From Corallococcus praedator (GTDB lineage Bacteria > Myxococcota > Myxococcia > Myxococcales > Myxococcaceae): 58,951 bases of DNA. Both the position numbers and the translations under genes were made by a program. This document shows, piece after piece, positions 1 to 16,861 of this stretch. Under the pieces are notes generated by a model. That model ran no database searches and had not been told where the DNA came from. It worked only from the letters and a program-made list of their open reading frames with translations. How positions within the stretch are numbered: position 1 is the stretch's first letter; each line of letters begins with the position of its first letter. The DNA lies in the NCBI RefSeq assembly GCF_003612125.1, contig NZ_RAWI01000010.1:1-58951 (forward strand), written 5' to 3'.

Positions 1-1139
1 CCCCCCGCACCCTGCCGCCGGATCCCGTGCCGTACATTCCCGACGGGCACCGCGTGATCCTGTTCCTTCACGGTCACAGCTCGAGTGCGGACGAAGCGCT
101 CCCCCTCATCCCGGAGCTCCTCAAGGCAGGCCTCGCCATTGGTACGAAGTACGCGGTCATCTCCTTCGACCTACCGAACAGTGGCTACGCGGAAACCTTC
201 GCGCACACGAGGGCCGCCCTGTCCAACGCCACCACCTACCCTGGCGGCATCTTCGATGGCGAACTGGTCCGCACCCCGATCCTCGACTTCGAGGAGGACT
301 TCGTGGTCGCCTTTGTCGAAGCGCTGGACCGGATCACTCCCATCAAGGATCGCTTCGCCGGAGTGATTGGCGGCAGCCTCGGAGGCAACCTGGGACTGCG
401 GCTCGGGCGGCGCGACCTGCGTGCCCAGCCATGGATTGGCGCAGGCATCGTGTCGTGGTCTCCGGCCTCGGTGTGGGACCCGATGATCCGGGACGAGATC
501 AAACGCAAGGGACCCGACCGCTGCCGGGACCACTGGGACCTGCCAGAAATCACAGGCTCACGCGCCGACTACTTCGCCGAGGTGTTCGACAGGTTCATCG
601 ACCCTGTGTTCATGCGAACCCAGCAGCCCGAGTTCTGGTACAGCCAATCCTGGATCCCCTGCAGGCAATTCCATATCAGGGAGGCACGACTGGCACGACG
701 TGAGACGTATTGCGCGAATTTTCGCCAATGGCATTGGCGCCTCGCTGGCGAGCAACTGATCTACAGCCACGTCGACCGCGTGAATCACTTCGACAACACC
801 ACCCCCTGGCGGTACGAACTGAACACCGTGCGCCAGTTGCTCGCGGCGGGCCAGGACGACAACTTCCAGGGCTCCAACATCTTTGACGCGACCCGGACCC
901 TGTCGAACCTGATGGCGAACACGCCCGGGGAGAGTCTCTTCCTGCTCCGCACCGGGCACTCGATCCACGTCGAGCGGCCCGCCTTCCTGGCGAGAGAGAT
1001 CGCCAGGTTCCTCTTCAAGCCACAGCCCACCAGGAGGACCGACGTCTCCTTTCTCGTGCCGCTGCTCCTGAGCCCACGGCCGCCCAGGCGCACGGACGTT
1101 TCGTTTCTCGTGCCGCTGCTGATGAGCGGTCCAGGGTGA
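1..1139 (+). CDS. alpha/beta-fold hydrolase (lipase/esterase-like). Probably 5'-partial: the frame is open to the window edge, and the first in-window start is GTG at 27.
   Basis: HGHSSS and GGSLGGNLG (GxSxG nucleophile elbow) motifs; high GC3; C-terminal 16-aa tandem protein repeat (RRTDVSFLVPLL x2). Confidence 0.6.
   Translation, partial: PRTLPPDPVPYIPDGHRVILFLHGHSSSADEALPLIPELLKAGLAIGTKYAVISFDLPNSGYAETFAHTRAALSNATTYPGGIFDGELVRTPILDFEEDFVVAFVEALDRITPIKDRFAGVIGGSLGGNLGLRLGRRDLRAQPWIGAGIVSWSPASVWDPMIRDEIKRKGPDRCRDHWDLPEITGSRADYFAEVFDRFIDPVFMRTQQPEFWYSQSWIPCRQFHIREARLARRETYCANFRQWHWRLAGEQLIYSHVDRVNHFDNTTPWRYELNTVRQLLAAGQDDNFQGSNIFDATRTLSNLMANTPGESLFLLRTGHSIHVERPAFLAREIARFLFKPQPTRRTDVSFLVPLLLSPRPPRRTDVSFLVPLLMSGPG
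1028..1127 (+). repeat. imperfect tandem direct repeat (2 x ~47 bp) at the 3' end of the hydrolase gene, encoding a duplicated RRTDVSFLVPLL(L/M)S peptide
   Basis: direct comparison of 1028-1074 with 1081-1127. Confidence 0.6.
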
Positions 1140-1164
1140 TTGACGCAGAACAAGGAGGATATCG

Positions 1165-1410
1165 ATGGCTTACAGCGGAAGATGTCTCATCAATTCGGCT
1201 GGCATCAACTCCAGCGATGGACGCGTCCATTTCTCGCTCAAGGCCTTGGACGGCGCATTCGACTGGACGCCGTTCCTGGCCAAGCAGGAGCACAACCATG
1301 AAGTGCTGGCCCTCGCGATCGCCGCGATGACGTCGAATTCGAATGTCGTGATTCAAACTGAACAGACAACAGCTTGGGCGGAGGTGTGGTGGTTTGATCT
1401 CGTGAAGTAG
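1165..1410 (+). CDS. small hypothetical protein (81 aa) in a locally lower-GC segment
   Basis: ATG preceded by a near-perfect SD (AAGGAGG at 1153-1159, 5-nt spacer); no recognisable domain. Confidence 0.35.
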   Translation: MAYSGRCLINSAGINSSDGRVHFSLKALDGAFDWTPFLAKQEHNHEVLALAIAAMTSNSNVVIQTEQTTAWAEVWWFDLVK

Positions 1411-1443
1411 CGACCCGCGAAGCGCACTCCGTTCGTGCGAGCT

Positions 1444-2358
1444 TCACCCTCGTTGCCCCTCTCGCGGAGGACTCCCGGTGCGCGCGTCACGCGCCACCAC
1501 GGAGGGCGTCACCCCGAGGACCCGCCGCATGCAACGCGCCATGTGGCTCTGGTGCGAGAAACCCGCTTCGAGCGCCACCTCACCGGCGGACCTTCCGCCC
1601 CGCTGCAGCAGCGTCCTCGCGCGCTCCACCCGTCGCTGCACGACGTACCCGTGCACCGGCAGCCCCGTGGAGCGCTTGAACAGGGTCTTCAGGTGCGACG
1701 CGCTGACTCCGGCGACGCCGGCCAGCCGTGCCAGGGAAAGATTCTGGTCGAGGTGCTCCTCGATGTACTCCGTCACGCGCCGCAGCTGCGGCTTCGACAG
1801 GCCGCGCTCGCGTCCGAAGGGCGCCGGGTAGCGGCCCAGCAGGTGGACCGAGAGCGCCAGGCCCAGGCACTCGGTGTAGAGCAGCCCGCCGGGATGGCCG
1901 GCCCTGCGGTCCGCGTCGAGCGCCCAGGCGATGTGCTCAATCTGCGGGTCCCTGAACTGATGGCGCGGCTCCAGGCCCGCGCGGTCGGGGTCCCGTCCCA
2001 TGTCCTCCGCCGCGCGCCGCAGGAGGGCCGGGGAGAGCCGCACGAGCACGGAGGCGCTCGCGTCCTGGTTCTCCCAGACATCCGACATCCCGGCCGGGAA
2101 GAGGTCGATGTCGCCCTGCGTGTAGACGAAGCGGTGGACGCGGCAGGCCCCGCGAAGGGGCGTCCCCGCATGAATCTTGAGACGGTGGTCGGGAACGGAA
2201 TCAAGCTCCATGACCCCGGCCTCGGCCGTGTGGAAGTCCACGTGCAGCCCGAGCCGGGGGCGTACCGCGTCGATGGACTCCCGCGTGCCCGTCGTCTGCA
2301 TCTGCCTGTCCATGCCTCGCGCTCCTTGCACCGGTGCCGCGCTGTGCGTTGCTGACAT
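1444..2358 (-). CDS. AraC-family transcriptional regulator
   Basis: C-terminal double HTH typical of AraC/XylS (LSLARLAGVAGVSASHLKTLFKRSTGLPVHGYVVQRRVERARTLL). Confidence 0.85.
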   Translation of the reverse strand: MSATHSAAPVQGARGMDRQMQTTGTRESIDAVRPRLGLHVDFHTAEAGVMELDSVPDHRLKIHAGTPLRGACRVHRFVYTQGDIDLFPAGMSDVWENQDASASVLVRLSPALLRRAAEDMGRDPDRAGLEPRHQFRDPQIEHIAWALDADRRAGHPGGLLYTECLGLALSVHLLGRYPAPFGRERGLSKPQLRRVTEYIEEHLDQNLSLARLAGVAGVSASHLKTLFKRSTGLPVHGYVVQRRVERARTLLQRGGRSAGEVALEAGFSHQSHMARCMRRVLGVTPSVVARDARTGSPPREGQRG

Positions 2359-2471
2359 AGCGCCGGGAGGCCGCGTCCGCCGCCGTCCGAACGTGCTCCA
2401 CGCGCGTCCGAACGTGTGCGACCGCCGCGGGCCTTCTCCCTATTCATTGCCGCGTCACCAAGGAGAAGTCC

Positions 2472-3233
2472 ATGGGCAGGTACGCAGGCAAGAAGGCAGT
2501 CGTGACGGGCGGGACGCAGGGAATGGGACTGGCGACCGTCAAGGCGCTCCTCGACGCAGGTGCCGAGGTGCTCTTCACGGGCCGGAACGAGAAGAGCCTC
2601 GAAGTGGCGCGGCGGGAACTCGGGCCCCGGGCACACGCGGTGCGGTCGGACACGTCAAGCCTTGCCGACATCGACGCGCTGGCGAGGGCCGTGGAGGAGA
2701 AGCTCGGCCGGGTGGACTTCGTGTTCATCAACGCCGGCTTCGCGCGCCTCGGCATGTTCGAGCACGTCACCGAGCAGGTGTATGACCAGACGTTCGACAT
2801 CAACACCAAGGGCGCGTACTTCACGGCGCAGCGCCTGGCCCCGCTCGTCAACGAGGGTGGCGCGTTCGTCTTCACCACCTCCGTCGCCAACGTGACGGGG
2901 GTTCCCGGCATGAGCGTCTACTCGGGCTCCAAGGCGGCGCTCCGCTCCTTCGCGCAAGGGCTCGCCGCGGAGCTGCTGCCCAGACGCATCCGGGTGAACG
3001 CGGTGAGTCCCGGCTTCATCAAGACGCCGACCATGGGTGTCGATGGCGCGTCCGCGGAGGAGCTGGCAGCCTTCGAGAAGGAGGGGAACGACACCACCCC
3101 CATGGGACGCATCGGCTCGCCCGAGGAGGTCGCCCGGGCAGTGTTGTTCCTCGCCTTCGAGGCCACCTTCACCACGGGGGCCGAGCTGCCCGTGGATGGG
3201 GGACTCACGCAGGTCGCCACGCCGCACCGCTAG
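2472..3233 (+). CDS. SDR-family short-chain dehydrogenase/reductase
   Basis: N-terminal TGGTQGMG Rossmann motif; catalytic YSGSK (YxxxK); SD AAGGAGAAG upstream; divergent from the AraC gene. Confidence 0.85.
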
Positions 3234-3259
3234 CACTTCCCACGAAGAGGAGCACCGAC

Positions 3260-4135
3260 ATGAAGCCAGCAATCGCAGTCCTCGGGGTCGGGCGCATGGG
3301 TTCCGCGCTCGTGAGTGCCTTCCTGAAGCAGGGGTACACGGTCGACATCTGGAACCGCACGCGGGCGAAGTGCGAGCCCCTGGCCGCCCAGGGCGCCCGC
3401 ATCGCGGCGACGGTGCGGGACGCCGTGGCCACCGCGGACCTCGTCGTGGTGAACGTGAGCGACTACGGAGCGAGCGACGCGTTGCTCCGGCCGGACGAAG
3501 TGACACAAGCGCTGCGCGGAAAGCTGCTCGTGCAGTTGACGTCCGGCTCACCGGGCCAGGCACGGGAGCAGGCCACCTGGGCGCAGCAACACGGCATCCC
3601 CTACCTGGATGGCGCCATCATGGGGACACCGGACTTCATCGGGCAGCCTGGGGGAACCCTCCTCTACTCGGGTCCGAGCGAGCTGTTCGAGCAGGCCCGA
3701 CCCATCCTCCTCGCGCTCGGTGGCAATACGCAGCACGTGGGCAGCGACGTGGGGCATGCCGCCGCGCTCGACAGCGCGCTGCTCGTGTCCATGTGGGGAC
3801 AGTTGTTCGGCGTGCTCCAGGGCGTAGCCGTCTGCGAGGCGGAGCGCATCCCGCTCGACACCTTCCTGGGCTACGTCAAGGCCTTCGCCCCGGTGGTGGA
3901 CGGAGGCGTCACGGACCTCGTCACGCGGGTCCAGCAGCGCCGCTTCGCCGCCGACACGGCGACGCTGGCCACCATCGAAGTCCACGCCGGGGCGCTGAGA
4001 CACCTGCTGGAGCTGTGCAAGGAGCGCGGGCTCCACCGTGCGGTGCCCGAAGCCTTTGATCAGCTCTTCCAGGCAGCCCTCCGGACAGGGCATGGCCAGG
4101 ATGACTTCGCCGCGCTGACACGGTTCATGCGCTGA
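3260..4135 (+). CDS. NAD(P)-dependent oxidoreductase of the 3-hydroxyisobutyrate/6-phosphogluconate dehydrogenase NAD-binding family
   Basis: N-terminal IAVLGVGRMGSALV GxGxxG dinucleotide fold; length and composition typical. Confidence 0.7.
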   Translation: MKPAIAVLGVGRMGSALVSAFLKQGYTVDIWNRTRAKCEPLAAQGARIAATVRDAVATADLVVVNVSDYGASDALLRPDEVTQALRGKLLVQLTSGSPGQAREQATWAQQHGIPYLDGAIMGTPDFIGQPGGTLLYSGPSELFEQARPILLALGGNTQHVGSDVGHAAALDSALLVSMWGQLFGVLQGVAVCEAERIPLDTFLGYVKAFAPVVDGGVTDLVTRVQQRRFAADTATLATIEVHAGALRHLLELCKERGLHRAVPEAFDQLFQAALRTGHGQDDFAALTRFMR

Positions 4136-4588
4136 GCAGGGCGCGGCGCGGGCGGGAGCCAGGTCCTGCCCCCCCCACTGCGGCGGGAGCTGTACGTGCC
4201 GTGAGCCGCGGCGAGAGGACGGTAGGGTGACGCGCGTCACGGCTGCGCTACGGCGCGTCGATACGATGGCCGAAGAAGTACCGGACTCCGCCTTGAAACC
4301 CGGCGGATTCATCGCTTTCGAGGAATGCCTCGAGGGACACCGCGACGGTATGCGGCTTCAGCTTCTTGTCCTGATACCAGGGACTGCGGCCTCTTCCCGT
4401 CGAGGCCTCGAATGCCAGCTTCCACTGGAGATTGAAATACGGCGACTCGACGTTGCGCGGGATGTGCTCTGCCAGACGCCAAACCCCGTAGTGCTCGCCT
4501 TGAAAGATGAGCGTCTTCTTGCCAGACGGCAGGTTCGATTCCCTCCGCCTCCACAGTTGGCCCACGGGCGCCCATCCGTACTCGCGAA

Positions 4589-4726
4589 TCATGGAGGTAT
4601 TGCACTGACCGTGGCCTCTCCGATGCCCAGCAAGTGGGCAAGCTGCTCGTACGAGAGGCGCTCCTCGTGGAAAGCGCGCACGATGGCCCGCCGCAACTTC
4701 TCCGGCGTGGGAAGTCCTTCGCTCAT
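4589..4726 (-). pseudogene. truncated helix-turn-helix gene remnant (45 codons; sigma-70 region-4/LuxR/transposase-like HTH) ending at the edge of a lower-GC insertion
   Basis: MSEGLPTPEKLRRAIVRAFHEERLSYEQLAHLLGIGEATVS with high GC3, then an abrupt stop; the downstream 4248-4592 reading frame has atypical composition and no domain. Confidence 0.35.
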
Positions 4727-4794
4727 GCCCCGAGGAGATCAAACCTCGGCGATCGCGTCAAACGGGCTCTGGGTTAGCTCATTCGCCCGATCAC

Positions 4795-4838
4795 TCCCTC
4801 AGAATGCAAAGGGCCGAGTCCCCGAAGGAACCCGGCCC
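4795..4838 (-). terminator. putative intrinsic terminator downstream of the GH45 gene
   Basis: GGGCCG..CGGCCC stem with imperfect inner pairing, followed on the minus sense by TTTGCATTCT. Confidence 0.35.
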
Positions 4839-4869
4839 GCGCAGGGGGTCAACGATACGTTCGCCTACC

Positions 4870-5583
4870 TTACTTGCGGATGCAGCCAGTTTTATTGGTG
4901 ATTGCCGTGGGACAGGCGACCGGCTTGAAGCTCACGGTAGGATTATCCGCGTTCTTGAACCAATCGAATCGCCAATAACAGCCCGGCCGCAATTGAGACG
5001 GCAGCATGGAGCATTGATCTCGGCTGCTGATGCCGCCGTACTGGCCACCCCAACCACTGGAGGGAGCATTCCACTGAGGCGTACAGGCATTGAACATGCC
5101 AACACCCCCGCCAGGGATTAGCAGGTCGAAATGGGTGTCACCCGAAGGCCCTCCCGTATTAACAACCTGAACCACCATCTTCTTGCCATTCGCGGACCCG
5201 CTGGTGAATGTCAATTCGTAACAGGCGCAGCTCAAAGTGGCTTCTGACCCGCCGGGCACATACGCTGCGGCAACCCCATACGCCAGACTATCATTCACAG
5301 CCCATGGCTGATTATTGTTACACATGAAGGCAGTACCACCATTCGCACCGCTTTGCGCATTCGGACTGAGCACGGTGACGCCATCGCTTGCGCAAGCTTT
5401 AACCGGACCGGTAACTGAGGCTTTCCCAGTCCACGAAGCGCTTCCTTTGGCACAATCCCAGTATCGGGTCGTCTTGCCCGTTTGTTGAGCCTCAGCCTCG
5501 TTGCCGATGCCGAGCATGAGCGCGAACGCAGCCACTACAGTCAGCGCTTGTCGAAGGGAGCCACTGTGACGAGTATTGGTCAT
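4870..5583 (-). CDS. secreted glycoside hydrolase family 45 endoglucanase (fungal EGV-like cellulase)
   Basis: Signal peptide MTNTRHSGSLRQALTVVAAFALMLGIGNEAEA. Mature part aligns along its length with Humicola-type GH45: TTRYWDC, CACYELTFTSG..GKKMVVQ, HFDLLIPGGGVGMF, CTPQ, YGGISSR, PGCYWRFDWFKNADNP. Both catalytic Asp contexts (YWDC, HFDL) are present. Local GC ~56% against a ~70% background. Confidence 0.85.
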   Translation of the reverse strand: MTNTRHSGSLRQALTVVAAFALMLGIGNEAEAQQTGKTTRYWDCAKGSASWTGKASVTGPVKACASDGVTVLSPNAQSGANGGTAFMCNNNQPWAVNDSLAYGVAAAYVPGGSEATLSCACYELTFTSGSANGKKMVVQVVNTGGPSGDTHFDLLIPGGGVGMFNACTPQWNAPSSGWGGQYGGISSRDQCSMLPSQLRPGCYWRFDWFKNADNPTVSFKPVACPTAITNKTGCIRK

Positions 5584-6019
5584 CGTCGCAGCGTGGCCCC
5601 AACAGCGCGCGAGTGTCAATGAGCGACGCTGCCTCACACTTCACACCTCGTGCGTACCCGGCAATGCGCTGTTCGGCACGACCACCTCGCACCAGTTGAA
5701 CCTACGGTAGGCGGGCGCTGGTATGCTGCCAGACCTCAACCGCCAGCCTGGATTACGAGAACGACCCGCGGCGCGATCTCGTACTTGCCCTCGCGCTCTG
5801 GCCCAGTGCGAAGTGAAGCATCGCCGCGTCGGTGTCCTCTTCAATGCTCGCAGGGCGCACCCCATTTTAAATCTCTCCTTTAAAGCCCATTCAATTTCAG
5901 TCCCTGGTGCCCTGCGGGCTCGGGGCGTATTTCTGTCGATCGCCCGGCCAGAAGCACTGGAGCGCTCGACAAGGAACACGGGCCGCAGCAAACCCCTCTT
6001 TCTTTGAGGCAATAACACC

Positions 6020-7417
6020 ATGACTGGAAGATGCTTCTCCCTCCCGTCCCACCAGCGATTTGGGCTCGTCGCAGCGCTCTGTGCCTCTGTCCTCCTGGGT
6101 TGTTCAGACCCGTCCTCTACCGCGAGCGATGCCGGCGTCGAAATGGATGCCGGGGATCGGACCGATGCCGGAGATCAAAACCCAACGGGTGACGCCGGTG
6201 TGGCCGACGGCGGCGGGAGTTCCGATGCCGGCGCTTCTCTCAAGAACAGTTGCCTGGGGCCCGCAAGCGCCAACGTGGCCAATGCGAGGTTACCAGCGGG
6301 GTACTGTGCATGGACCTGGGCGACCATTTCTGATCCGCGAGGGTTGATCGTCGCTCCGAACGGAGACGTCCTGGTGGTCGAGCGCAGCGCGGGTCGAGTC
6401 ACCGCGCTCTACGACTCGAACGGTGACGGCGTTTCGGATTCGTCCGAACGGGCGACGCTGGTCGAAGTCAGCGGGCTCAACCATGGCATCACACTGCACG
6501 ACGGATTTCTCTATGCCTCTTCCGCGACGCGCGTCCTGCGTTGGCCGTTCGCAACCGGAATGAGGGCAGCGCTGAGCGGCCAGCAAGAAGTGGTGACCGG
6601 CATCCCCGCGGGCGGCCATGTCACCCGGACCATCATCTTCGACGCCGAAGGCCGCCTCTACGTGAGCGTCGGTTCAGCCGCGAACGTGGACAGCAACTCG
6701 ACGCGCGCTCGCATTCGTCGCTTCACCGCGGCCCAGGTTCAGGCGGGCAATGTGGCCTTCACGGACGGCGAGGTGTTTGCCGATGGCCTTCGGAACGAAG
6801 CGGGCCTGCGTTTCGACAGCCAGGGCCGGCTGTGGGGTGTGGAAAACGGGCGAGACAACCTCAACCGTGCTGACCTCGGGGGCGACATTCACACCGACAA
6901 TCCCGCTGAAGAGCTGAACCTCTTCGCTGAAGCCGGGCGGTTCTATGGCTACCCCTATTGCTTCAGTGAGTTCCTGCTTCCGGCTGGCGTGGGAATGGGC
7001 CCGAAGACACAGTGGGCAGATCCGGGCTTCATGAATGATGGCACCCACTCCGATGCGTGGTGCCGCGACGTCAACCATGTGGTGCCTCCAATGTTGGCGA
7101 TGCCCGCTCACGTTGCGCCGCTCGACATCATCTTCTACGACGGCGCGTCCTTCCCGCCCGAGGTGGTCAACGACGCCTTCGTCAGCTTCCATGGCTCCTG
7201 GAATCGACAGCCCGCCCAGGGCTACGAGGTGGCGCGGGTGGTGTTCGAGAACGGGTTGCCGGTTCGCTACGAGCCGTTCTTCGAGTTCGACGGAACCAGC
7301 GACACCGCAGCCGGCTGGCCGCATCGGCCGGTGGGGTTGGGGGTGGGCCCCAATGGCGAGTTGTTCGTGAGCAGCGACGCGTCAGGCCAGATCATCGCAA
7401 TCGGCTACCAGCGATAA
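6020..7417 (+). CDS. lipoprotein of the PQQ-dependent glucose/sorbosone dehydrogenase (beta-propeller) family
   Basis: Lipobox LLGCSD; Asp/Gly-rich linker; GLIVAPNGDVLVVERSAGRV and later propeller-blade motifs typical of soluble sugar dehydrogenases. Confidence 0.5.
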   Translation: MTGRCFSLPSHQRFGLVAALCASVLLGCSDPSSTASDAGVEMDAGDRTDAGDQNPTGDAGVADGGGSSDAGASLKNSCLGPASANVANARLPAGYCAWTWATISDPRGLIVAPNGDVLVVERSAGRVTALYDSNGDGVSDSSERATLVEVSGLNHGITLHDGFLYASSATRVLRWPFATGMRAALSGQQEVVTGIPAGGHVTRTIIFDAEGRLYVSVGSAANVDSNSTRARIRRFTAAQVQAGNVAFTDGEVFADGLRNEAGLRFDSQGRLWGVENGRDNLNRADLGGDIHTDNPAEELNLFAEAGRFYGYPYCFSEFLLPAGVGMGPKTQWADPGFMNDGTHSDAWCRDVNHVVPPMLAMPAHVAPLDIIFYDGASFPPEVVNDAFVSFHGSWNRQPAQGYEVARVVFENGLPVRYEPFFEFDGTSDTAAGWPHRPVGLGVGPNGELFVSSDASGQIIAIGYQR

Positions 7418-7526
7418 CCAGACGCCCCACGCTCAACTCGTGCGCACGTACAGCATCGCGTGGCTCACGACGCGTCTTACGCAACGGCCGCCCTGCCCAC
7501 CGGGCGCGGGGCGGCCGTTCGACGTC

Positions 7527-9902
7527 TCAGTGCCCCAACACGTGGACCTGCACGGGCGAGTGCTGGTCCGTGGACGGTCCGGCCCCCAGGGCACCCCAGC
7601 CATTGTCACCCCAGGCCCACACGGTGCCGTCCTGCTTCAAGGCAAACGTGGACTGCTGCCCCGCGGTGAGTGCCGAAACCCCCGTCAGGCCTGGCACCCG
7701 TCCTGGCACGCCGCGGTGGGTGGTCGTCCCATCCCCGAACTGGCCACGGTGGTTCCAACCCCAGGCCCACACGGTGCCGTCCTGCTTCAGGGCCAGCGAG
7801 TGGTATCGGCCCCCGGCAAGGGCGACGACACCTGTCAGGCCCGGCACCTGCACTGGCGAGGAGCTGCTGGTGGTCGTCCCATTCCCGAGTTGTCCGTAGT
7901 CGTTGTAGCCCCAGGCCCACACCGTGCCATCCTGCTTCAAGGCCAGCGTGTGGTAGGCGGCAGGGACAATGGCCGCGACATCCGTCAAGCCCTGGACCTG
8001 GACTGGCGTGAGGCGCTCAGCGGTCGTCCCGTCCCCGAGTTGACCTCTGGAGTTGAGCCCCCAGCCCCACACGGTCCCGTCCTGCTTCACGGCCATCATG
8101 TGGTGCCAGCCAGCTCGGAGCGTCACGACGCCCGTCAACCCCTGCACCTGGACCGGAACCGCGCGCGCGGCCTTCGAGCCGTCTCCAAGGGAGCCGTCGA
8201 TATTCCAGCCCCAGGCCCACACGGTGCCGTCCTGCTTCAAGGCCAGCGAGTGATAGCCACCTGACGCGATCGCCACGACGTCCGTCAGACCTGGCACCAG
8301 CCCCGCGGTGGGACGAGGGACCGTGGTCCCGTCCCCCAGCTCGTAGGCGCCGTTGTCACCCCAGGCCCAAACGGAGCCGTCCTGCTTCAGGGCGAGCATG
8401 TGGGTGTCGCCTGGTGCAATGGCAGTCACCCCCGTCAGGCCCTGCACCTGCACTGGCGTGTCGCGGTTGACGGTCGTCCCATCCCCAAGGTTGCCAAAAT
8501 TGTTTCGGCCCCAGGTCCACACGGTGCCGTCCTGCTTCAACGCCATGGTGGAGTAGAAGGAGCCCGCGATTCGAATCACGCGCCCCGACGGTGCCGTGCA
8601 GACCGTGCCCCCTTGCAGACCGAAGGAAGCGCTGGAGGAGAGCCCCAGCGCGTTGGTGACGGACACCGTCACCGCGGGCGTCGTGCCCTCGGGGATGCAG
8701 GAAGGCGCCGTCCAGAGGACCTCGCTCGTCACACTGCCGCTGGAGGCCGCGCCCAGCGCCCCCACGTTGGTGGTCCAGGCGAAGGTGAGCGCGCTGTCCT
8801 GCGGGTCCTTCGCCTTCACCCTGAAGACGACGGTTCCCCCCTCCGCCGGAACACTGACGACGGACTGGAACGTCTCCACCACCTCCGGCGGGAAGCGCGC
8901 CTGCGTCGAGGGCCCAACGCAGACGCCCAGCGTCCCTGTTGTCTGCCCTCCCCTTCCGTCCGCCACCGTCACCCTCAGCGAACACCGGGCGCACGCGCTT
9001 CCCATGGGCGGCTGCGCTGTCGGCGTGAAGCTTGCGTTCGGCGAGGTCTCATCCGTCCACGTGCCCTGGCAATCCGACGTCCACTGGTAGCCCAGGCCGT
9101 CCCCATCCGCATCACCCGCCAGGGCCGTCACGGACGTGGCCTGCCCCACCGCCACGGATGAGGGCATCGCCGTCACCCCTGTCACCCTGGGCCACGTATT
9201 CACCGTCACGTTGACGGCCGCGCTCCCCGTGCCACTCGTCACCGTGATGCTCAGACTGACGGCGTCCGAGGCCCCCTTCGAGTCCGTCACCGTCAACGTC
9301 AACACCACCGCGCCGGGCACGGAAGGCGCCACCCACGTCGTGGTGAGGCTGCCAGGCGAACTGAAGCTGCCCGCGCTCGCTGTCCATGCATACGTGAGGT
9401 CGTCCTCCGCGTCGGAGTCCTCCGCGCTCGCCTGGAGCGCCACCACCCCCTCCGGTCCGACCGTCGAAGGACTGGCCACCAGCGAGGTGATGACGGGCGC
9501 CGTGTTTTCAAAGGGCGCGGGGGCATTCACTTCCTGGAGCACCAGCGCGACCGCCGTCGTCTCACCGGTGAAGATGCGGACACCCGTCGCCTCTCCCTCG
9601 TAGCGCCTCGCACCTTGCGCGTCGAAAGCCTCTCCATGGAAGGTGCGCCCCTCTCCCTCAGGAAGCTTTCCCAGCACTCCGCCCCACTGGGCGCCCGTCT
9701 TCACCAGCGCGTCGGTGCGAGCGGTCATCCCCTCTCCGCTCACCGTCAACTCCACCCGCACCACATCACTGGCACTCAGCCCCTGAGGCAGCGTCACCAC
9801 CACCTGCGCGCTTCCGGACGCATCCTCGGAGACGCACCCGGCCAGCGCGACCATCAGGCCCACAGCCAGACAGAACAGCCTGCTTCTTCGCTCTTGAGAC
9901 AT
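7527..9902 (-). CDS. lipoprotein with N-terminal Ig/PKD-like domains and a C-terminal RCC1 (regulator of chromosome condensation) 7-blade repeat propeller
   Basis: Lipobox LAGCVSED. Repeats of ALKQDGTVWAWGxNxxGQLGDGTT, the canonical RCC1/ATS1 motif, at least 7 times. SD GGAGAA upstream of the ATG at 9902. Confidence 0.85.
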   Translation of the reverse strand: MSQERRSRLFCLAVGLMVALAGCVSEDASGSAQVVVTLPQGLSASDVVRVELTVSGEGMTARTDALVKTGAQWGGVLGKLPEGEGRTFHGEAFDAQGARRYEGEATGVRIFTGETTAVALVLQEVNAPAPFENTAPVITSLVASPSTVGPEGVVALQASAEDSDAEDDLTYAWTASAGSFSSPGSLTTTWVAPSVPGAVVLTLTVTDSKGASDAVSLSITVTSGTGSAAVNVTVNTWPRVTGVTAMPSSVAVGQATSVTALAGDADGDGLGYQWTSDCQGTWTDETSPNASFTPTAQPPMGSACARCSLRVTVADGRGGQTTGTLGVCVGPSTQARFPPEVVETFQSVVSVPAEGGTVVFRVKAKDPQDSALTFAWTTNVGALGAASSGSVTSEVLWTAPSCIPEGTTPAVTVSVTNALGLSSSASFGLQGGTVCTAPSGRVIRIAGSFYSTMALKQDGTVWTWGRNNFGNLGDGTTVNRDTPVQVQGLTGVTAIAPGDTHMLALKQDGSVWAWGDNGAYELGDGTTVPRPTAGLVPGLTDVVAIASGGYHSLALKQDGTVWAWGWNIDGSLGDGSKAARAVPVQVQGLTGVVTLRAGWHHMMAVKQDGTVWGWGLNSRGQLGDGTTAERLTPVQVQGLTDVAAIVPAAYHTLALKQDGTVWAWGYNDYGQLGNGTTTSSSSPVQVPGLTGVVALAGGRYHSLALKQDGTVWAWGWNHRGQFGDGTTTHRGVPGRVPGLTGVSALTAGQQSTFALKQDGTVWAWGDNGWGALGAGPSTDQHSPVQVHVLGH

Positions 9903-10064
9903 CGTGTTTCTCCGCACGCGGTATTCGATGGACTCCTTCCCAGGCGTCGCCGCGGAGACGTATCCGGAGGATCACCAGAAAAGGGAGTCGGCGACCTTAC
10001 CGACCGTGCACCCATCACGCCGCTGGGTCAGGGGGACGCCACACCGGTCCGCGATGACTTCAGC

Positions 10065-11153
10065 TCACCCACGTCGGCGAAAACTCCCGAAAGAGAAACG
10101 GGCCATGAACCCGAACACCGGAGGCGAGTTCTTCAGCCGGAGGGCCCGCTTCTCCACCAGATGCCAGGAGAGCGCCGCGAGCAGCACCACCACGGGCAGC
10201 GACAGCGTCGCGTTCACCCACCACGCCACGGAGCCACCCATCAGCCAGGTCACGGTCTGCTGCACGGGGAACGCATAGACATACACGCCGTAGGAGAAGT
10301 CTCCGTGGCGCGCGAAGCTTGAGAGGCGGCTCGGCAGGAAGGCCAGGTACAGCACCAGGTACGTGCCACAGCTCCCCACGGCGTACTTCAGGCCGCCCCA
10401 GCGCGCGGTCGCCACCAGCACTCCCACGCAGCCCAGCGCCAGCCAGGGGCTCATCCGCAGCCGCTCCCGGAACAGGTACAGCAACAGGCCACCGCCGAAG
10501 TAGAGATACAGCTCCGGCCAGAGGTTCAGCCGGGGGCCCACGCGCGGCACGAAGGGCACCAGCGCCGCCACCGCCCAGGCCACCAGGGCCACCTGGCGCC
10601 GCAGCAGCCCCACCACGCCCAGCCCCGCGACCAGCAGGTAGAACCCCACTTCGTACAGCAGCGTCCACAGCGAGCCATTCACCGCGTCCGGGTAGGCGTT
10701 GCCGTGGAAGACGCCGGGCAGGTTCCACTGCGGCTGGTACAGGGCGAGGTTGCGCAGGAGATAGAGATACGTCTCCGGCGACTGGAAGTAGCCCGCCAGG
10801 GGCAGCTCCGTCAGCGCGGGCCCGAGCAGGAACACGGTCGCCAACAACACGCACGCCAGCCCTGGGAAGATTCGCAGCGCCCGCGCCCACAGGTAACGGG
10901 CCATGCTCGGCGAGCGCTCGTAGCTCTGGGTGATGAGCACGCCGCTGATGAGCAGGAACACCGCCACGCACAGCCGGCCCAGCGTCATCTGCCCGTGGGT
11001 CAGCGCCTCGAACGGCTCCGGCGTTCCCGCGCCCTGTCCCAGGGGGAACGCGTGCGAGAAGATGACGCCCACCGCGGCCACGAACCGGATGAAGTCCAGG
11101 TTGTTGCGCCTGCCGTCCAGGCACTGTCGCAGGGTGGGTGAAGTGGAGGGCAT
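10065..11153 (-). CDS. acyltransferase family 3 (OafA/YrhL-like) integral membrane protein
   Basis: N-terminal NNLDFIRFVAAVGVIFSHAF motif and about 10 predicted TM segments. Start taken at MPSTSPTL; the upstream extension is Arg/Gly-rich junk. Confidence 0.8.
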   Translation of the reverse strand: MPSTSPTLRQCLDGRRNNLDFIRFVAAVGVIFSHAFPLGQGAGTPEPFEALTHGQMTLGRLCVAVFLLISGVLITQSYERSPSMARYLWARALRIFPGLACVLLATVFLLGPALTELPLAGYFQSPETYLYLLRNLALYQPQWNLPGVFHGNAYPDAVNGSLWTLLYEVGFYLLVAGLGVVGLLRRQVALVAWAVAALVPFVPRVGPRLNLWPELYLYFGGGLLLYLFRERLRMSPWLALGCVGVLVATARWGGLKYAVGSCGTYLVLYLAFLPSRLSSFARHGDFSYGVYVYAFPVQQTVTWLMGGSVAWWVNATLSLPVVVLLAALSWHLVEKRALRLKNSPPVFGFMARFSFGSFRRRG

Positions 11154-11346
11154 GGGCACCGCCCTCCAGTCTCGCCCGAGCCCCCCGCCGCTCAAAGCCC
11201 GGCCTGTCGTTCTCCCGAGGGCGCACGGCACCCGGGCGGGCCCGGCACCCTCGCCAAGAGAGCGAGCTGGCATCCAGACCGCCGAGCCCGCGCTTCAGCT
11301 CGGGTTCCCGCATCCCGCGCGCGACGCGGACAGGCGCTCGCTGGAT

Positions 11347-12579
11347 TCAGGGACCCTGGAGTGCGTTTTCGGCGCCCGCCAGTCCAGGCACCTCCACCGG
11401 CGAACGTCGGTGCACGGTCGTCCCGTCACCCAGTTGGCCGTAATCGTTGTAGCCCCAGGTCCACACCGTGCCGTCCGCATTCACGGCGAGCGAGTGATTG
11501 TAGCCAGCGGCCACGGTCGTGACGCCCGTGAGGTCCGGCACCAGCGCGGCCCTGCTGCGCTCGTTGTCGGTGCCATCCCCGAGCTGGCCGTAGCCGTTGT
11601 AGCCCCAGGCCCGCACCGTGCCGTCCTGCTTCAGGGCCAGCGTGTGAAAGCCCCCCGCGGCCAGGGCCGTGACGTCCGTGAGGTCCAACACCTGCACGGG
11701 CGCATGGCGCTCCAGGGTCGTCCCATCTCCGAGCTGTCCATAGACGTTGTAGCCCCAGGCCCACACCGTGCCGTCCTGTCTCACGGCGAACGAGTGGAAG
11801 ATGCCAGCGAAGACGCCCGTGACGCCCGTCAGGCCCTGCACCTCCACCGGTGAACGTCGGTGCACCGTCGTCCCGTCACCCAACTGGCCAAACGTGTTGT
11901 CGCCCCAGATCCACACCGTGCCGTCTTCCTTCAACGCCAGCACGTGGTTGCGCCCCGTGGCGATGGAAGTGATTCCCGTGAGGTCCGGCACCTGAAGGGC
12001 CTGGGCGCGCTCCGTGTCCGTCCCATCCCCGAGCTGCCCGTAGCCGTTGTAGCCCCAGGTCCACACCGTGCCGTCCGCCTTCAAGGCCACCGAGTGGTAG
12101 CCCCCCGCCGCGAGGGCGGTGACCTCCGTGAGGCCGTCCACCTGCACCGGCGCGTTGCGCGCGAAGGTCGTCCTGTCACCGAGCTGGCCATAGACGTTGT
12201 AGCCCCAGGTCCACACGGTGCCATCCGCCTTCAACGCCACCGAGTGGTAGGCGCCCCCGCTCACCTGCGTGACACCCGTCAGCTCCGCCACCTGCATCGG
12301 CGAGCTCCGGGTCGCGTTCGTCCCGTCGCCCACCTGGCCGAAGGTGTTCTCGCCCCAGGCCCACACGGTGTCGTCCTCCAGCACGGCCACGGAGTGGTAC
12401 CAGCCGGCGGCGATCCGGCCCCCTTGCGTGAGGCGGTTGCTGGCGGTCCTCAACGCCAGTGGCTGCGTCCGTGCCTCCTGGGTGGCACCGGAGGCGGACG
12501 GCTCGCCCCCACAGCCCACCATCACGGCGCTGACCACGAAGAGCATCCACCCCCACCACTGCCGTGCTTCTGACTTCAT
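11347..12579 (-). CDS. RCC1-repeat beta-propeller lipoprotein
   Basis: Signal/lipobox MKSEARQWWGWMLFVVSAVMVGCGG; 7 RCC1 repeats (GTVWTWGYNxYGQLGDGT); SD AAGAGG upstream of the ATG at 12579. Confidence 0.85.
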   Translation of the reverse strand: MKSEARQWWGWMLFVVSAVMVGCGGEPSASGATQEARTQPLALRTASNRLTQGGRIAAGWYHSVAVLEDDTVWAWGENTFGQVGDGTNATRSSPMQVAELTGVTQVSGGAYHSVALKADGTVWTWGYNVYGQLGDRTTFARNAPVQVDGLTEVTALAAGGYHSVALKADGTVWTWGYNGYGQLGDGTDTERAQALQVPDLTGITSIATGRNHVLALKEDGTVWIWGDNTFGQLGDGTTVHRRSPVEVQGLTGVTGVFAGIFHSFAVRQDGTVWAWGYNVYGQLGDGTTLERHAPVQVLDLTDVTALAAGGFHTLALKQDGTVRAWGYNGYGQLGDGTDNERSRAALVPDLTGVTTVAAGYNHSLAVNADGTVWTWGYNDYGQLGDGTTVHRRSPVEVPGLAGAENALQGP

Positions 12580-12844
12580 ACGAGCCTCTTTCGATTTCGG
12601 AACGGGCGCGGCTCCTCTTCCAGCTCCCGGGTGCAGGGCACCGCCAGGGAAGCGTCGAAAGGAGCGCGGCGCGAAGCTACCTGCACAGGGTTGCGTTGGA
12701 ATCTGGGTCGTCTTCGCCCCTGGCGCGACCCGCCCGACCGCGAAAGTCCAGGGCTCGCGCACACGATGTTGGCGGCCGTATCGCGCGGGTGTTTCCCAAA
12801 CACAGAATGCCCGCAGCGGCTTGCTGGCATGACACCCACATGCC

Positions 12845-13732
12845 CTACGCGACGATCGTGGCCTCCATCACGGTGAGGGCCACCCCACCGACGCGGGCGC
12901 GCTCGATGCGGCCCGGCCTGCCAGTGACTTCGATGTCGATGCGGCCCGGCTTGCCCAGGGTGTCTCCCTGTTCGATGCGGCTGCTCACGGTGCCGCCCTG
13001 CTCCGGCAGGCGCAGGACGCCGTGCTCCGCGAGGTAGGCCGCCAGCGGGCCCGCGGCGGAGCCCGTCACGGGATCCTCCAGGATGCCGAAGCCCGGGACG
13101 AAGTAGCGCGCCTGCGCCACGCTGCCCTCCTCCTTCGCGTCCCGCGTGAAGAGATACACGCCCCGCACGCCGTGCGGCATCAGCAGGGCGTTCATCGCCG
13201 CGCCCCTGGGGGCCAGCGCTTCCAGGTCCTCCCTGCGCCTCAGGGGCACCACCAACCGGTGGCCCTGGCGGATCACCGGCAGCCCCGTGTCCACCTGCGC
13301 CACCGTGCCGCCCAGCAGGGGCATCAGCGCCTCCAACGACACGGGGCTGGGCTGCGCCGCGGGCTGGGGGGTGACGATCCAGACCTGCGTCCCGCGCGGG
13401 CCCCGGGGCTCCAGTTCGATGTCGAACATGCCGGCGGGGCACTCCAGGCGGTAGGTGCCCGGGCTTCGCAGCAGCCCCTTCTCCGCGAGCAGGTGGAAGG
13501 TGGCGACGGTGGCGTGACCACAGAAGGGAATCTCATCCACGGGCGTGAAGTAGCGCAGGCGCACCGTGGGGTCCTCCGGCCGGGACAGGACGAAGGCCGT
13601 CTCCGAGGCCCCCACCACGGCGGCGATCCGCTGCATCGTGGGGACATCGAGCGAGGACGCGTCGAGCATCACCCCTGCCCGGTTTCCCTGCCCCGGGGTC
13701 TGGGTGAAGGCATCGATGATCTGCACCTGCAT
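12845..13732 (-). CDS. PhzF-family phenazine-biosynthesis-like isomerase
   Basis: MQVQIIDAFT..GNRAGVM N-terminus and overall PhzF/DAP-epimerase-fold signature. Confidence 0.8.
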   Translation of the reverse strand: MQVQIIDAFTQTPGQGNRAGVMLDASSLDVPTMQRIAAVVGASETAFVLSRPEDPTVRLRYFTPVDEIPFCGHATVATFHLLAEKGLLRSPGTYRLECPAGMFDIELEPRGPRGTQVWIVTPQPAAQPSPVSLEALMPLLGGTVAQVDTGLPVIRQGHRLVVPLRRREDLEALAPRGAAMNALLMPHGVRGVYLFTRDAKEEGSVAQARYFVPGFGILEDPVTGSAAGPLAAYLAEHGVLRLPEQGGTVSSRIEQGDTLGKPGRIDIEVTGRPGRIERARVGGVALTVMEATIVA

Positions 13733-13744
13733 GGGGCACTCCGA

Positions 13745-13784
13745 GCGAAGAAAGGGGCGCTGAAAGGCGGAGGCATGCTCCGCC
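13745..13784 (-). terminator. putative rho-independent terminator after hsp20
   Basis: Perfect 7-bp stem GGCGGAG/CTCCGCC with a GCATG loop (13766-13784), followed on the minus sense by TTTCAGCGCCCCTTTCTTCG. Confidence 0.45.
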
Positions 13785-13812
13785 CTTCGGTCGCCGTCAA
13801 GCGCGGGGCCCT

Positions 13813-14481
13813 TCAGTGGATGGGCTTCTTCGGAGCGCCCTTGGCGCCACCCTTCACTTCGATGCGCCGGCCCAGGGCCCTGGCTTGCGGCAGCTTCATG
13901 GAGACCTCCAGGACGCCATCCTCGAACCGGGCCTGGATGGATTCCGTGTCGATGCCTTCCGGGAGCGGTACGACGCGCTGGAATGAGCCGAAGTCGCGCT
14001 CCATGCGCCAGATGCCTTCCTGCTCCTCCTCCTGCTCGAAGTTCCGTTCACCTTCGAGGATGAGCAGGTCCTCGCGCACCTCGACCTGGATGTCCTCCTG
14101 CTTCATCCCGGGCAGGTCGGCCCTCACCAGGAGGTTTCCGTCCCGCTCCACCACGTCCACCTGCGGCGACCAGGAGCCGAACTCCACGTCGCCTCCGCTC
14201 CGGAGGCCGAGGCCGCGTCCCATCCCGAAGTCCATGAAGAGCTGATCCATGTCCTCCATCATCCGGCGGAAGAACCCGAATGGACTCTGGGAAATGCCTC
14301 CCCTCTGGACGGCGGGGACCTGCGCTTCACGGCGCGAGATTCCCGAGCCCCTGGAGGAAGCGCGGGTGGGAGCGGTTTCGCGTGGGACGTCGGCCTGCCT
14401 GGGTTGCTCCGTTCCCTGGGTCCCAGCCCGTGGGGTGCTCGAGCCCCCGGAGCCCCCGGCCTTCACGTTTTCGGTTGCCAT
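13813..14481 (-). CDS. Hsp20/alpha-crystallin family small heat-shock protein with an N-terminal Gly/Ser/Arg-rich extension
   Basis: ACD core: WSPQVDVVERDGNLLVRADLPGMKQEDIQVEV..FQRVVPLPEGIDTESIQARFEDGVLEVSMKLP. Confidence 0.85.
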   Translation of the reverse strand: MATENVKAGGSGGSSTPRAGTQGTEQPRQADVPRETAPTRASSRGSGISRREAQVPAVQRGGISQSPFGFFRRMMEDMDQLFMDFGMGRGLGLRSGGDVEFGSWSPQVDVVERDGNLLVRADLPGMKQEDIQVEVREDLLILEGERNFEQEEEQEGIWRMERDFGSFQRVVPLPEGIDTESIQARFEDGVLEVSMKLPQARALGRRIEVKGGAKGAPKKPIH

Positions 14482-14720
14482 GACAGCCTCCTCGGAGAGC
14501 GGCCCGGCCGGCCTCTGGCCCGTCGGGCAGTCCCCTCCAATCGAAGTGGGATGAGATCATCCCAGTTGAAAGCTGGCGGTCCGCGCGGGCGCCATCAAGA
14601 GGCTGCCGCCCGCACAACGGCTCCGGTGGAAGCATGGCCGGGCCTGCCCATGGCCCGTCACCGTCCTTTCTCCCATAACAGGGTTGAACGAGCGGCTCCG
14701 AGCAGGCACAGCAGGCAGGC

Positions 14721-15272
14721 ATGAATCACGCGAAGAAGGTCGGGTGAGGGGTGCTGGCGGGGCTGCTCCTGGCGGGCAGCGCGTCCGCGCAGATCGTCAA
14801 CGTGCAGGCGCTCTTCGACGAGAAGGCGGAGCTGGGACCGGCGGCCGCGATCGAACTGGGTGGCGACTGGCGCACGGGCAGCACGCAGCTGTTCTCCGTG
14901 CGCGGCTCGCTGGTGGGGCAGCTCCGCTCCGAGCGCAACGTCTGGCTGGGCGTCATCCGGGGCGAGTAGTCCTTCGCCAGCGGCGAGCGCATCGTCAGCC
15001 AGGTCCTGGAGCACGTGCGCTTCCGGAGGCGTTTCACGGAGCGCGTGTCCGGCGAGGCGTTCGTCCAGCACGAATACAACGAGTTCCGCCGGCTCCAGTT
15101 GCGAGCCCTCCTGGGTGCCGGGCCACGCTTCGTGCTGTTCAACGAGGAGGCCACCGGGCTCACCTTCGGCACGGTGGGCATCGGCTTCAACCTCACCTAC
15201 GACAGCGCGCCCCCCGCGACGGTGCCGGCCATGGACACCCAGCTTCGCACCACCGTGGGCGTGAAGTTCTAG
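14721..15272 (+). pseudogene. DUF481-like outer-membrane beta-barrel protein gene interrupted by in-frame stops (TGA at 14745-14747, TAG at 14967-14969)
   Basis: All in one frame: MNHAKKVG(TGA)GVLAGLLLAGSASA signal peptide, then ...GVIRGE(TAG)SFASGERIV...GFNLTYDSAPP...TVGVKF. The track splits it into 14751-14969 and 15015-15272. Confidence 0.5.
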
Positions 15273-15288
15273 GAGTAGACTGCCCGCC

Positions 15289-16134: not shown

Positions 16135-16799
16135 CGGCGCAGGCCCCGCTGGCCCGAGGGCGTGACGACGAGTCCGCGCGAGTCGGGTTGACGTTCCACC
16201 CAGCCCAGCGAGAACACCCGTGAGGCGAGCGCCGCCCCCAGCGCCCCGGCCAGGTGGTCGCGCCGCTCGCTCCAGTCCAGACAGCGGTGGGCGAACTGGC
16301 GGCGCTGTTCTCTCAAGGGGGCCAGCTCGATGCCGAAGGCCTCGAACCAATCCTCGCCGCTCGGGGTCAGCGCGAAGGCGCGGCGCCGCAGGGAGAGGTG
16401 CCCACCGCGCAGGAGCGCATCGGTGATGCCCATCCCGAGCCTTCCCGCCAGGTGGTCGTAGCAGTAGCGAGCGGCCCGGAGCGGCTCCGGCGTGGCCGAG
16501 GCCCGGGGTCCTCGGACGGCCACCGTCATCAGCGCCTCCACCATCCGCGCCACGGTGGGCGTGGCGAGCCGGAACACCTTGTTGCGCCCCTGGCGGGTCG
16601 AGCGGATCAACCGGGCCTGCTCCAGGCGCTTGAGGTGCACGGTGGCCGTCGCGGGGCTGACGCCGGTGCCGAAGGCCAGCTCCTTGGCGACGAGCGACCG
16701 CCCCTCCATGAGCAGCTCCAGCATCCGGATCCGCGTGGCATCCCCCACGGCGCCCGCCAGCGCGGCGAGGTCCGGCCCTGCATCCATCGTTCGTTCCAT
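16116..16799 (-). CDS. ArsR/SmtB-family winged-HTH transcriptional regulator with a C-terminal extension
   Basis: LAGAVGDATRIRMLELLMEGRSLVAKELAFGTGVSPATATVHLKRLEQARLIRSTRQGRNKVF; convergent with and overlapping the proC 3' end. Confidence 0.7.
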   Translation of the reverse strand: MERTMDAGPDLAALAGAVGDATRIRMLELLMEGRSLVAKELAFGTGVSPATATVHLKRLEQARLIRSTRQGRNKVFRLATPTVARMVEALMTVAVRGPRASATPEPLRAARYCYDHLAGRLGMGITDALLRGGHLSLRRRAFALTPSGEDWFEAFGIELAPLREQRRQFAHRCLDWSERRDHLAGALGAALASRVFSLGWVERQPDSRGLVVTPSGQRGLRRHFGAL

Positions 16800-16861
16800 G
16801 ACGAACCGTTTCCTAGCACAGGGAGGGTCCAGGAGGAGGACAGTGCCCGAAGCGAGGACTG

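Follow-up and report, generated by a model that had tools for sequence, protein, structure and literature searches.

A 1-kb cassette encoding a secreted GH45 protein in Corallococcus praedator: probable old eukaryotic origin and recent movement among myxobacterial genera

We analysed a stretch of 58,951 nucleotides (nt) of contig NZ_RAWI01000010.1 of Corallococcus praedator, referred to below as the window, in which an intact open reading frame (ORF) of 237 codons on the minus strand (4870-5583) encodes a protein of glycoside hydrolase family 45 (GH45). In the standard annotation of this genome the gene, D7Y13_02380, is listed as "hypothetical protein". Its product matched the Pfam profile PF02015 (Glyco_hydro_45) over positions 2-213 of 214 with an E value of 1e-72 and 245 bits against a curated cutoff of 27, and this full-length match places it in the GH45 family. 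Solved GH45 structures aligned with the protein from end to end with no gaps of note, at 55-60% identity for the springtail and fungal enzymes; the best match was PDB 5H4U (E 9e-79, residues 19-236), the fungal EGV structures 2ENG, 3ENG and 4ENG scored about 1e-69, and fungal enzymes overall ranged from 1e-71 to 1e-67. From this identity over the full domain we infer that the protein probably adopts the double-psi beta-barrel fold. The first-pass annotation had described a fungal-type (EGV-type) GH45 enzyme with a bacterial signal peptide, and the description holds in both parts: all the motifs that it quoted were found (YWDC, CACYELTFTSG, HFDLLIPGGGVGMF, YGGISSR and PGCYWRFDWFKNADNP), the sequence is subfamily A-like with both catalytic aspartates in place, and the N-terminus is of the Sec type. 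5H4U, which we take to be the enzyme of the Antarctic springtail Cryptopygus antarcticus, is like the window protein a single-domain secreted GH45, but it is eukaryotic (animal), with a full cysteine complement (CCKPSC, CCACYE) and a TG.DL loop. A structure paper for the C. antarcticus enzyme is cited in PMC13084967.

The signal peptide was read directly from the sequence, not by a predictor. It consists of a basic n-region, a 15-residue hydrophobic core (ALTVVAAFALMLGIG) and a cleavage site between AEA and QQ, and the predicted mature N-terminus coincides with the start of the mature eukaryotic GH45 proteins. RefSeq gives the protein as a 215-residue form (WP_158620276.1, P0398) that starts at 5517 (Met23) instead of 5583, by which most of the signal peptide would be lost. 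We prefer the ATG at 5583 because the N-terminal pattern MxNTRxxGSLRQAL is kept at the protein level down to the 65%-identical copy of Archangium gephyra; residues 1-22, being conserved between genera, speak for the 237-residue form.

The catalytic base and acid, defined as Asp10 and Asp121 in Humicola insolens EGV (cited in PMC6509783), are both kept in the window protein as Asp43 (in YWDC) and Asp153 (in HFDL), and the binding-site residue Tyr8 is kept as Tyr41 (in RYWDC). The whole catalytic domain of the H. insolens enzyme (EGV/Cel45A, the reference for subfamily A) aligned with the window protein at an E value of about 6e-69. The window protein differs from it in having no CBM1 or linker, in its bacterial signal peptide, in the loss of two of the seven disulfides and in the replacement of Asp114-Leu115 by Pro-Ser. 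Among 66 positions that are near-invariant in eukaryotes it keeps 60, and it deviates at six (four cysteines and Asp114-Leu115) where eukaryotic sequences deviate at 0.39 on average. The active-site loop TGGDLG reads TGGPSG (Pro146-Ser147), without the substrate-stabilising Asp114; Asp114-Leu115 is 99% conserved in 93 non-myxobacterial sequences and the four cysteines are 99-100% conserved. The cysteine changes (C45A, C49A, C80A and C118S), which leave the set behind the seven disulfides of HiCel45A incomplete, form two co-varying pairs: Cys49/Cys118, which we take to be Cys16-Cys86 of HiCel45A, and Cys45/Cys80, presumably Cys12-Cys47. The pairing is supported here because the cysteines are lost strictly together.

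The gene is compositionally foreign to its surroundings. Its guanine-plus-cytosine (GC) content is 56.6% (0.53, 0.57 and 0.60 at codon positions 1, 2 and 3; GC1, GC2 and GC3) against a mean of 68.2% for the window, and native neighbouring genes have a GC3 of 0.84-0.91. In a composition scan of the window, only 0.5% of the 714-nt sliding windows were as low in GC as the GH45 gene. The segment 4230-6010, to which 56-58% GC had been ascribed, has 60.0% GC as a whole. All five GH45 copies of the same sublineage have 57-58% GC within DNA of 68-69% GC, and a GC3 of 0.53-0.71 persists in copies that are 55-65% identical to the window protein in amino acids (those of A. gephyra and A. violaceum and of the metagenomic loci L013 and L014). 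At comparable protein divergence from the window copy, the GC3 of the Myxococcus stipitatus copy (L009) is a host-like 0.85, that of A. gephyra (L010) 0.56 and that of A. violaceum (L011) 0.53. Among these lineages, drift to the composition of the host is seen in M. stipitatus only.

We compared positions 1-20000 of the window by blastn with four 20-kb GH45 loci from Myxococcus, Corallococcus sp. CA053C, Archangium and Pyxidicoccus. The cassette of about 1 kb listed in Table 1 was the only DNA that matched, and the annotated neighbours of GH45 were unrelated in every genome compared. The shared unit begins 120-220 nt upstream of the ATG, ends 34-95 nt beyond the stop codon and includes an intrinsic terminator. 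Leader positions -1 to -120 (5584-5703) are common to all five genomes with a mean identity of 89%, and positions -121 to -217 to three or four of them; conservation of the leader is marginally above that of the coding sequence (CDS; 0.89 vs 0.86). The leader has a TTGACA at -31, and the inverted repeat GCAGCGT...ACGCTGC within it is invariant. A search of the leader for a sigma-70 consensus promoter gave no match, and a sigma-54-like TGGCAG-N5-CAGC lies in a stretch that is absent from locus L001. The idea of a structured RNA or riboswitch in the leader was dropped, with only a sub-threshold chance match in Rfam and 0 compensatory pairs in RNAalifold. In a second assembly of A. lansingense (L006) a part of the leader (window 5751-5800) is split off by about 130 nt (9657-9706 vs 9836), a small insertion. 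The synonymous divergence (dS) between a Corallococcus and an Archangium GH45 copy was 0.14. We concluded that a minimal promoter-gene-terminator cassette has recently moved horizontally among myxobacterial genera, because the loci are not syntenic, the copies are highly identical at the nucleotide level and the gene tree conflicts with taxonomy (see below). The first-pass annotation had named close bacterial homologues of similar GC in conserved synteny as evidence against its reading; the closest homologues did prove to be bacterial and equally low in GC, but the GH45 locus has no conserved synteny across the related genomes.

Table 1. Coordinates of the GH45 cassette and of adjoining features in the window
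Feature	Position	Strand	Description
GH45 CDS	4870..5583	-	237 amino acids; stop codon 4870-4872; mature catalytic domain 4873-5487
Signal peptide of GH45, predicted	codons 1-32 (5488-5583)	-	predicted cleavage between AEA and QQ
GH45 cassette, full extent	4777..5800	-	only shared DNA, 86-89% nt identity; ends ragged, differing between genomes
Intrinsic terminator	4811..4838	-	12-bp GC-rich hairpin (GGGCCGGGTTCCTTCGGGGACTCGGCCC) followed by TTTGCATTCT; 32 nt past the stop codon; kept in 4 of 5 genomes
Conserved upstream region, presumed promoter and 5' leader	5584..5800	-	from the alignment of five genomes
Putative decayed, internally deleted IS630-family transposase	4557..4726	-	helix-turn-helix ORF 4589-4726 (45 amino acids) plus CNTSMIREYGWAPVGQ (4604-4557, other frame), the start of the DDE domain
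Copy of tmRNA/tRNA-Ala 3' end, presumed att-type scar	4532..4554	+	23 nt exact (GGTTCGATTCCCTCCGCCTCCAC), no gene attached
5'-truncated gene	4248..4531	-	C-terminal ~90 residues (~180-268) of an uncharacterised family of ~270 amino acids
PQQ-dependent sugar dehydrogenase cassette	5845..7472	+	CDS 6020-7417, TrAA12-like/GSDH; divergent from GH45

Homologues were sought among 5.8 billion proteins. The exact window protein was found in the C. praedator strain group only (Corallococcus sp. CA031C also carries it), and a near-identical protein of strain CA047B falls in the same 90% cluster. The nearest relatives, 72-80% identical in amino acids, came from Corallococcus sp. CA053C, Archangium lansingense, Pyxidicoccus xibeiensis, Myxococcus qinghaiensis and Pyxidicoccus sp. 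3LFB2, followed by those of A. gephyra (65%), A. violaceum (62%), Pyxidicoccus sp. 3LG (61%) and M. stipitatus and M. llanfair... (57%). The best eukaryotic matches (Mucorales, Pleosporales, a fungus gnat, springtails, nematodes and rotifers) were 55-66% identical, none above 66%, so that the closest homologues are bacterial. Bacterial homologues came from about 11 named myxobacterial species and from metagenomic sequences, and the distribution is patchy; within Corallococcus the gene was seen in three close strains and in CA053C. GH45 had been called rare in bacteria, and published counts agree (31 of 16,401 bacterial RefSeq species vs 128 of 409 fungi; PMC13084967). Outside these bacteria, genes of the type found here are nearly restricted to fungi and soil animals.

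Neighbour-joining (NJ) trees placed 20 myxobacterial-type sequences in one clade with a bootstrap of 56-60%, and the window's subclade within it reached 89-92%. The gene tree is in conflict with taxonomy: the C. praedator copy groups with that of M. qinghaiensis (83% bootstrap), that of Corallococcus sp. CA053C with that of P. xibeiensis (70%), and the Archangium copies appear in three places. If GH45 had come down vertically from a myxobacterial common ancestor without any recent transfer, rearrangement having destroyed the synteny and selection having kept the GC low, its presence in several genera of Myxococcaceae and Archangiaceae would be accounted for, and the low GC3 across deep branches could reflect selection. 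We consider such inheritance very improbable in view of the extremely patchy distribution and the discordant gene tree, of homology that in no genome reaches further than 100-220 nt from the gene, and of the Corallococcus-Archangium dS, which looks far too low for members of different families.

The derived characters shared by the bacterial copies are more telling than the tree. Every bacterial copy carries a related signal region that ends in ...(P)EAEA(Q/A). In many copies a lipobox LL[SAT]GCS precedes the PEAEA motif (P0013, P0014, P0015, P0034, P0048, P0060, P0069, P0097 and P0113), including a sister set of metagenomic sequences on contigs of 64-70% GC; in the window's subclade and in A. 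gephyra the lipobox cysteine is replaced (LGIG/LGLG). To judge from these N-termini, the ancestral bacterial GH45 of the lineage was probably a lipoprotein. The Cys49/Cys118 pair is gone in every bacterial copy and the Cys45/Cys80 pair additionally in the window subclade only. Beside the bacterial sequences in the tree branch P0012 and P0044, which have a eukaryote-style signal peptide and all cysteines; P0044 lies at 3167-3856 of an 8-kb metagenomic contig with 35% GC (L012) and may stand for the eukaryotic lineage nearest to the donor. No donor lineage could be identified in the NJ trees, in which the deep nodes are unresolved.

The first-pass annotation had proposed a direct transfer from a eukaryote to Corallococcus. 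Such a recent event, from a fungus or another eukaryote straight into C. praedator, would explain the fungal/animal-type sequence with its best solved-structure matches among eukaryotes, the GC foreign to the host and the insertion scars that adjoin the gene. It did not survive the comparison and is in our view highly improbable: the nearest homologues are myxobacterial and of the same low GC, and bacterial copies are up to 80% identical in amino acids and 89% in nucleotides, non-coding flanks included, where eukaryotes reach 66% at most. Copies in other genera share the signal peptide, the disulfide losses and the terminator, which are bacterial-specific derived characters, and the reading frame is uninterrupted. 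A eukaryote-like gene in a draft genome also raises the question of fungal DNA mis-binned during assembly. Contamination of this kind is scarcely credible here, as the gene, embedded among bacterial genes in the window, is equipped with a signal peptide of bacterial type and with an intrinsic terminator, and the same cassette was seen in chromosomes that are complete or nearly so (A. lansingense, 13.5 Mb; A. gephyra, 13.0 Mb; M. stipitatus, 10.4 Mb).

Taken together, we regard it as rather likely that the window carries a cassette of about 1 kb with a secreted GH45 whose bacterial lineage stems from an old eukaryotic transfer, that this cassette has recently moved between myxobacterial genera, and that its product is probably still a glucanase. 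One old transfer out of eukaryotes would have founded a bacterial, mainly myxobacterial, GH45 lineage, the simplest reading because of the derived characters and the distribution in the literature. A bacterial signal peptide, probably first of the lipoprotein type, was then fitted to the gene, and disulfides were shed progressively, as the N-termini and cysteine pairs of the present copies show. The window's sublineage has moved recently between genera as the 1-kb unit described above. The most likely vehicles, to judge from the scars described below, would be integrative islands that target the 3' ends of transfer-messenger RNA (tmRNA) and tRNA-Ala genes, with flanks that erode afterwards. 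In C. praedator the cassette is found in a patch of acquired and decayed DNA.

Several results weigh against this history. Deep nodes of the tree are unresolved, the 20-member myxobacterial clade having the modest bootstrap given above and the wider bacterial clade only 2%, so that the case for one origin and for a transfer from eukaryotes to bacteria is built on the shared characters and the distribution among taxa, not on a robust tree. The vehicle of transfer remains conjectural. The cassette ends gave only short, chance-level matches to terminal inverted or direct repeats, and no integrase or transposase gene adjoins the cassette in any locus; GH45 was not found on IMG/VR viral contigs, and a phage vector was rejected. 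A host-gene baseline for dS was sought in the fetched loci, where the shared genes were kinase paralogues only and unusable for the purpose. Long residence in genomes of 68-70% GC should have erased the low GC3. Its persistence suggests either that the gene has been delivered repeatedly from a reservoir of lower GC (a pool of mobile elements or a different group of bacteria) or that selection acts on composition. On the side of function, the constraint on the gene is weak, and the protein may have become less active, or altered in its activity, when the Asp114 loop residue was lost.

The last points bear on the main rival to an active glucanase, namely that GH45 is decaying as a passenger of mobile DNA or has been repurposed as a non-hydrolytic, expansin/loosenin-like protein for glucan binding or wall loosening. 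Pairwise ratios of nonsynonymous to synonymous divergence (dN/dS) among the five copies were 0.38-0.94, and codon positions 1, 2 and 3 were equally diverged (identity 0.857, 0.874 and 0.851). The catalytic acid is replaced (by S, G, N, E or A) in 9 of the 20 clade members, and naturally acid-less homologues include those of M. qinghaiensis (HFSL) and A. violaceum (QFAL). The six deviations of the window protein at near-invariant positions point the same way, as does the P-S in its Asp114 loop: in beetle GH45 proteins, substitutions of Asp114 were correlated with lost activity in several, not all, proteins (PMC6509783). Against decay or repurposing, the window copy retains both catalytic aspartates and the Tyr8 equivalent, and neither the promoter region nor the signal peptide nor the terminator has been lost. 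The five ORFs are intact, with no stop and no indel in 714 nt, whereas random substitutions would leave the frame of a given pair free of stops with a probability of 3-5%, and amino acid identity among the copies is above random expectation (p<=0.024). When sites were divided by their conservation in eukaryotes, dN/dS was 0.24 at near-invariant, 0.55 at intermediate and 0.95 at variable positions, and dN never exceeded dS in the core. Some of the apparent losses of the acid may also be shifts of specificity, since Asp-to-Glu at Asp114 or Asp121 was correlated with a shift to xyloglucan in beetle enzymes, and at the acid is compatible with xyloglucanase activity in those of weevils (PMC6509783). 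We therefore rate decay or repurposing as possible but unlikely.

Positive or diversifying selection found no support, with dN/dS of 0.95 in the most variable class and 0.24 in the core. From the intact ORFs and from dN/dS split by conservation, we therefore concluded that the protein has a constrained core and an essentially neutral surface and is neither a pseudogene nor clearly positively selected. Since purifying selection has retained both catalytic aspartates and the conserved core, the window protein is most likely a working endo-beta-1,4-glucanase of the inverting type that acts on amorphous beta-1,4-glucans, possibly with changed efficiency or specificity. A wider speculation, which we hold to be improbable, is that proteins of this lineage are no ordinary cellulases but secreted predation factors that attack or loosen the walls of prey or of enemies with cellulose or beta-glucan in their walls (for example oomycetes, amoebal cysts or biofilm cellulose). 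As fast-evolving factors they would be kept in a low-GC pool of tmRNA/tRNA-Ala islands and be re-delivered repeatedly across myxobacterial genera as the cassette, and changes of the catalytic acid would mark new substrates or non-hydrolytic action.

Genes pass from eukaryotes to bacteria far more rarely than in the opposite direction, and few enzyme families, GH45 among them, show such a transfer. A precedent is the Legionella clade, a eukaryote-type GH45 in a bacterial genus for which transfer from an animal has been proposed; it belongs to another phylum and nests, on a very long branch, among the enzymes of oribatid mites, unlike the window copy (PMC13084967). The closest described relative is the GH45 of M. 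stipitatus DSM 14675 (P0092, "beta-1,4-endoglucanase"), which has been reported to lie outside the main bacterial GH45 group with Glu at the proton donor (PMC3981738). It resembles the window protein in belonging to the same clade, in being single-domain and secreted, in its ...EA.AQ signal region and in the loss of Cys16-Cys86, and it differs in its 57% identity, its GC3 (0.85 vs 0.60), its retained Cys12-Cys47, its Glu at the proton donor and Ala in place of Tyr8. In the window copy both the Asp and the Tyr are kept, and its sublineage is younger and actively spreading. One bacterial sequence has been placed among GH45 proteins of springtails (Collembola; PMC6509783), and this is probably the M. 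stipitatus protein. Myxobacterial GH45 has also been counted in surveys of carbohydrate-active enzymes (PMC12093494). No paper was found in the literature on the myxobacterial GH45 clade, its cassette-like spread, its disulfide losses or its relaxed catalytic centre. With a member of the clade already in published GH45 phylogenies, this is no new kind of system, and some of the evolutionary detail is new. What the locus offers is a view of the path after transfer: gain of a signal peptide, stepwise shedding of disulfides, relaxation of the catalytic centre, and onward spread as a compositionally foreign 1-kb cassette. To students of myxobacteria it points out a candidate secreted glucanase of patchy distribution that is hidden under the label "hypothetical protein".

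The GH45 cassette lies in a low-GC zone (about 4140-7470) that is a mosaic of acquired and decayed DNA. Downstream of the gene is a short helix-turn-helix (HTH) ORF which had been taken for a truncated native gene. This identification was not upheld, as its GC (63%) is below the window mean and its product resembles the N-terminus of a transposase of the insertion sequence (IS) family IS630. Alone, the 45 residues fall under every Pfam and NCBIfam cutoff; their homologues are fragments of 55-77 residues with HTH_23, HTH_28, HTH_29 or HTH_32 domains, typical of the N-termini of IS630/Tc1 transposases. The protein P0247 of C. exiguus has the same fusion of the HTH to FLDES...REYGWAPVGQR (FLDESFCNTSIAREYGWAPVGQR), which in the window (CNTSMIREYGWAPVGQ) is out of frame. 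The ORF would thus be a decayed IS630-family transposase, not a host regulator, because its homologues carry these HTH domains and P0247 shares the fusion to the DDE motif; only the first DDE motif survives and no intact element is present. The insertion of foreign DNA at the locus, also claimed in the first-pass annotation, is corroborated by the 5'-truncated gene, the IS remnant and the scar resembling an attachment (att) site, which adjoin GH45.

This scar, a 23-nt core for which the chance expectation is 0 matches, lies directly between the IS remnant and the truncated gene. On viral contigs, tmRNA and tRNA-Ala genes have the same core at their 3' ends, and it is often found at the ends of these contigs. 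Intact tRNA or tmRNA genes were found neither in the window nor in loci L001-L004. L002 and L004 carry this tmRNA-like core as well, about 260 nt upstream of GH45 and exactly where the homology between the two loci stops. L002 has two direct copies (9717-9738 and 16644-16665), both on the minus strand with the same 20-nt trailer (CTGTTTTGCGCTGTG) and 6.9 kb apart, which bracket GH45 and five other genes, among them a hexapeptide transferase, a Ser/Thr kinase and a DUF2380 protein. Over 20 kb there was neither an integrase nor an intact tRNA or tmRNA gene, and the annotated loci showed no integrase either. As marks of an integrative island, the window has a tRNA/tmRNA 3'-end copy at the border and lacks an intact target gene, a direct-repeat pair (found in L002 only) and an integrase. 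We take the cores for att-type scars of degraded integrative islands, and the window would contain at most a degraded one.

On the other side of GH45 is a pyrroloquinoline quinone (PQQ)-dependent sugar dehydrogenase gene, whose product belongs with the TrAA12-like/GSDH beta-propellers (PF22807, 104 bits; PF07995, 44 bits) and whose GC3 is 0.76. Its segment matches a metagenomic contig (L007) at 80-93% nucleotide identity, with unrelated neighbours there and no GH45. The protein is 94% identical to that of Stigmatella erecta and 85% to that of Pyxidicoccus sp. 3LFB2, where it lies on a different contig from the GH45 of that strain. It is a second, independent and separately mobile cassette. A fungal origin of this AA12-like neighbour was ruled out, all close homologues being bacterial of Myxococcota type. 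The right-hand host flank of the mosaic is formed by the gene at 7527-9917 (minus strand), of native GC, which encodes a secreted or lipoprotein-like protein of 796 residues with PKD/Big_9 Ig-like domains followed by seven RCC1 repeats; the insert is situated between this gene and a reductase gene at 3260-4135.

Elsewhere in the window, a second spot as low in GC as the GH45 gene was seen at ~35.8-37.5 kb. It falls in a low-GC patch at 36110-38201 (minus strand; minimum about 54% at 36151) that encodes an alpha/beta hydrolase of 288 residues and a PGA_cap/CapA-like protein of 406 residues and may be another acquired segment. Positions about 480-1470 and about 25180-27400 also have less than 62% GC in 714-nt windows. 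Just past the RCC1-repeat gene, at about 10050-10950, the plus strand shows a strong positive AT skew of 0.25-0.51.

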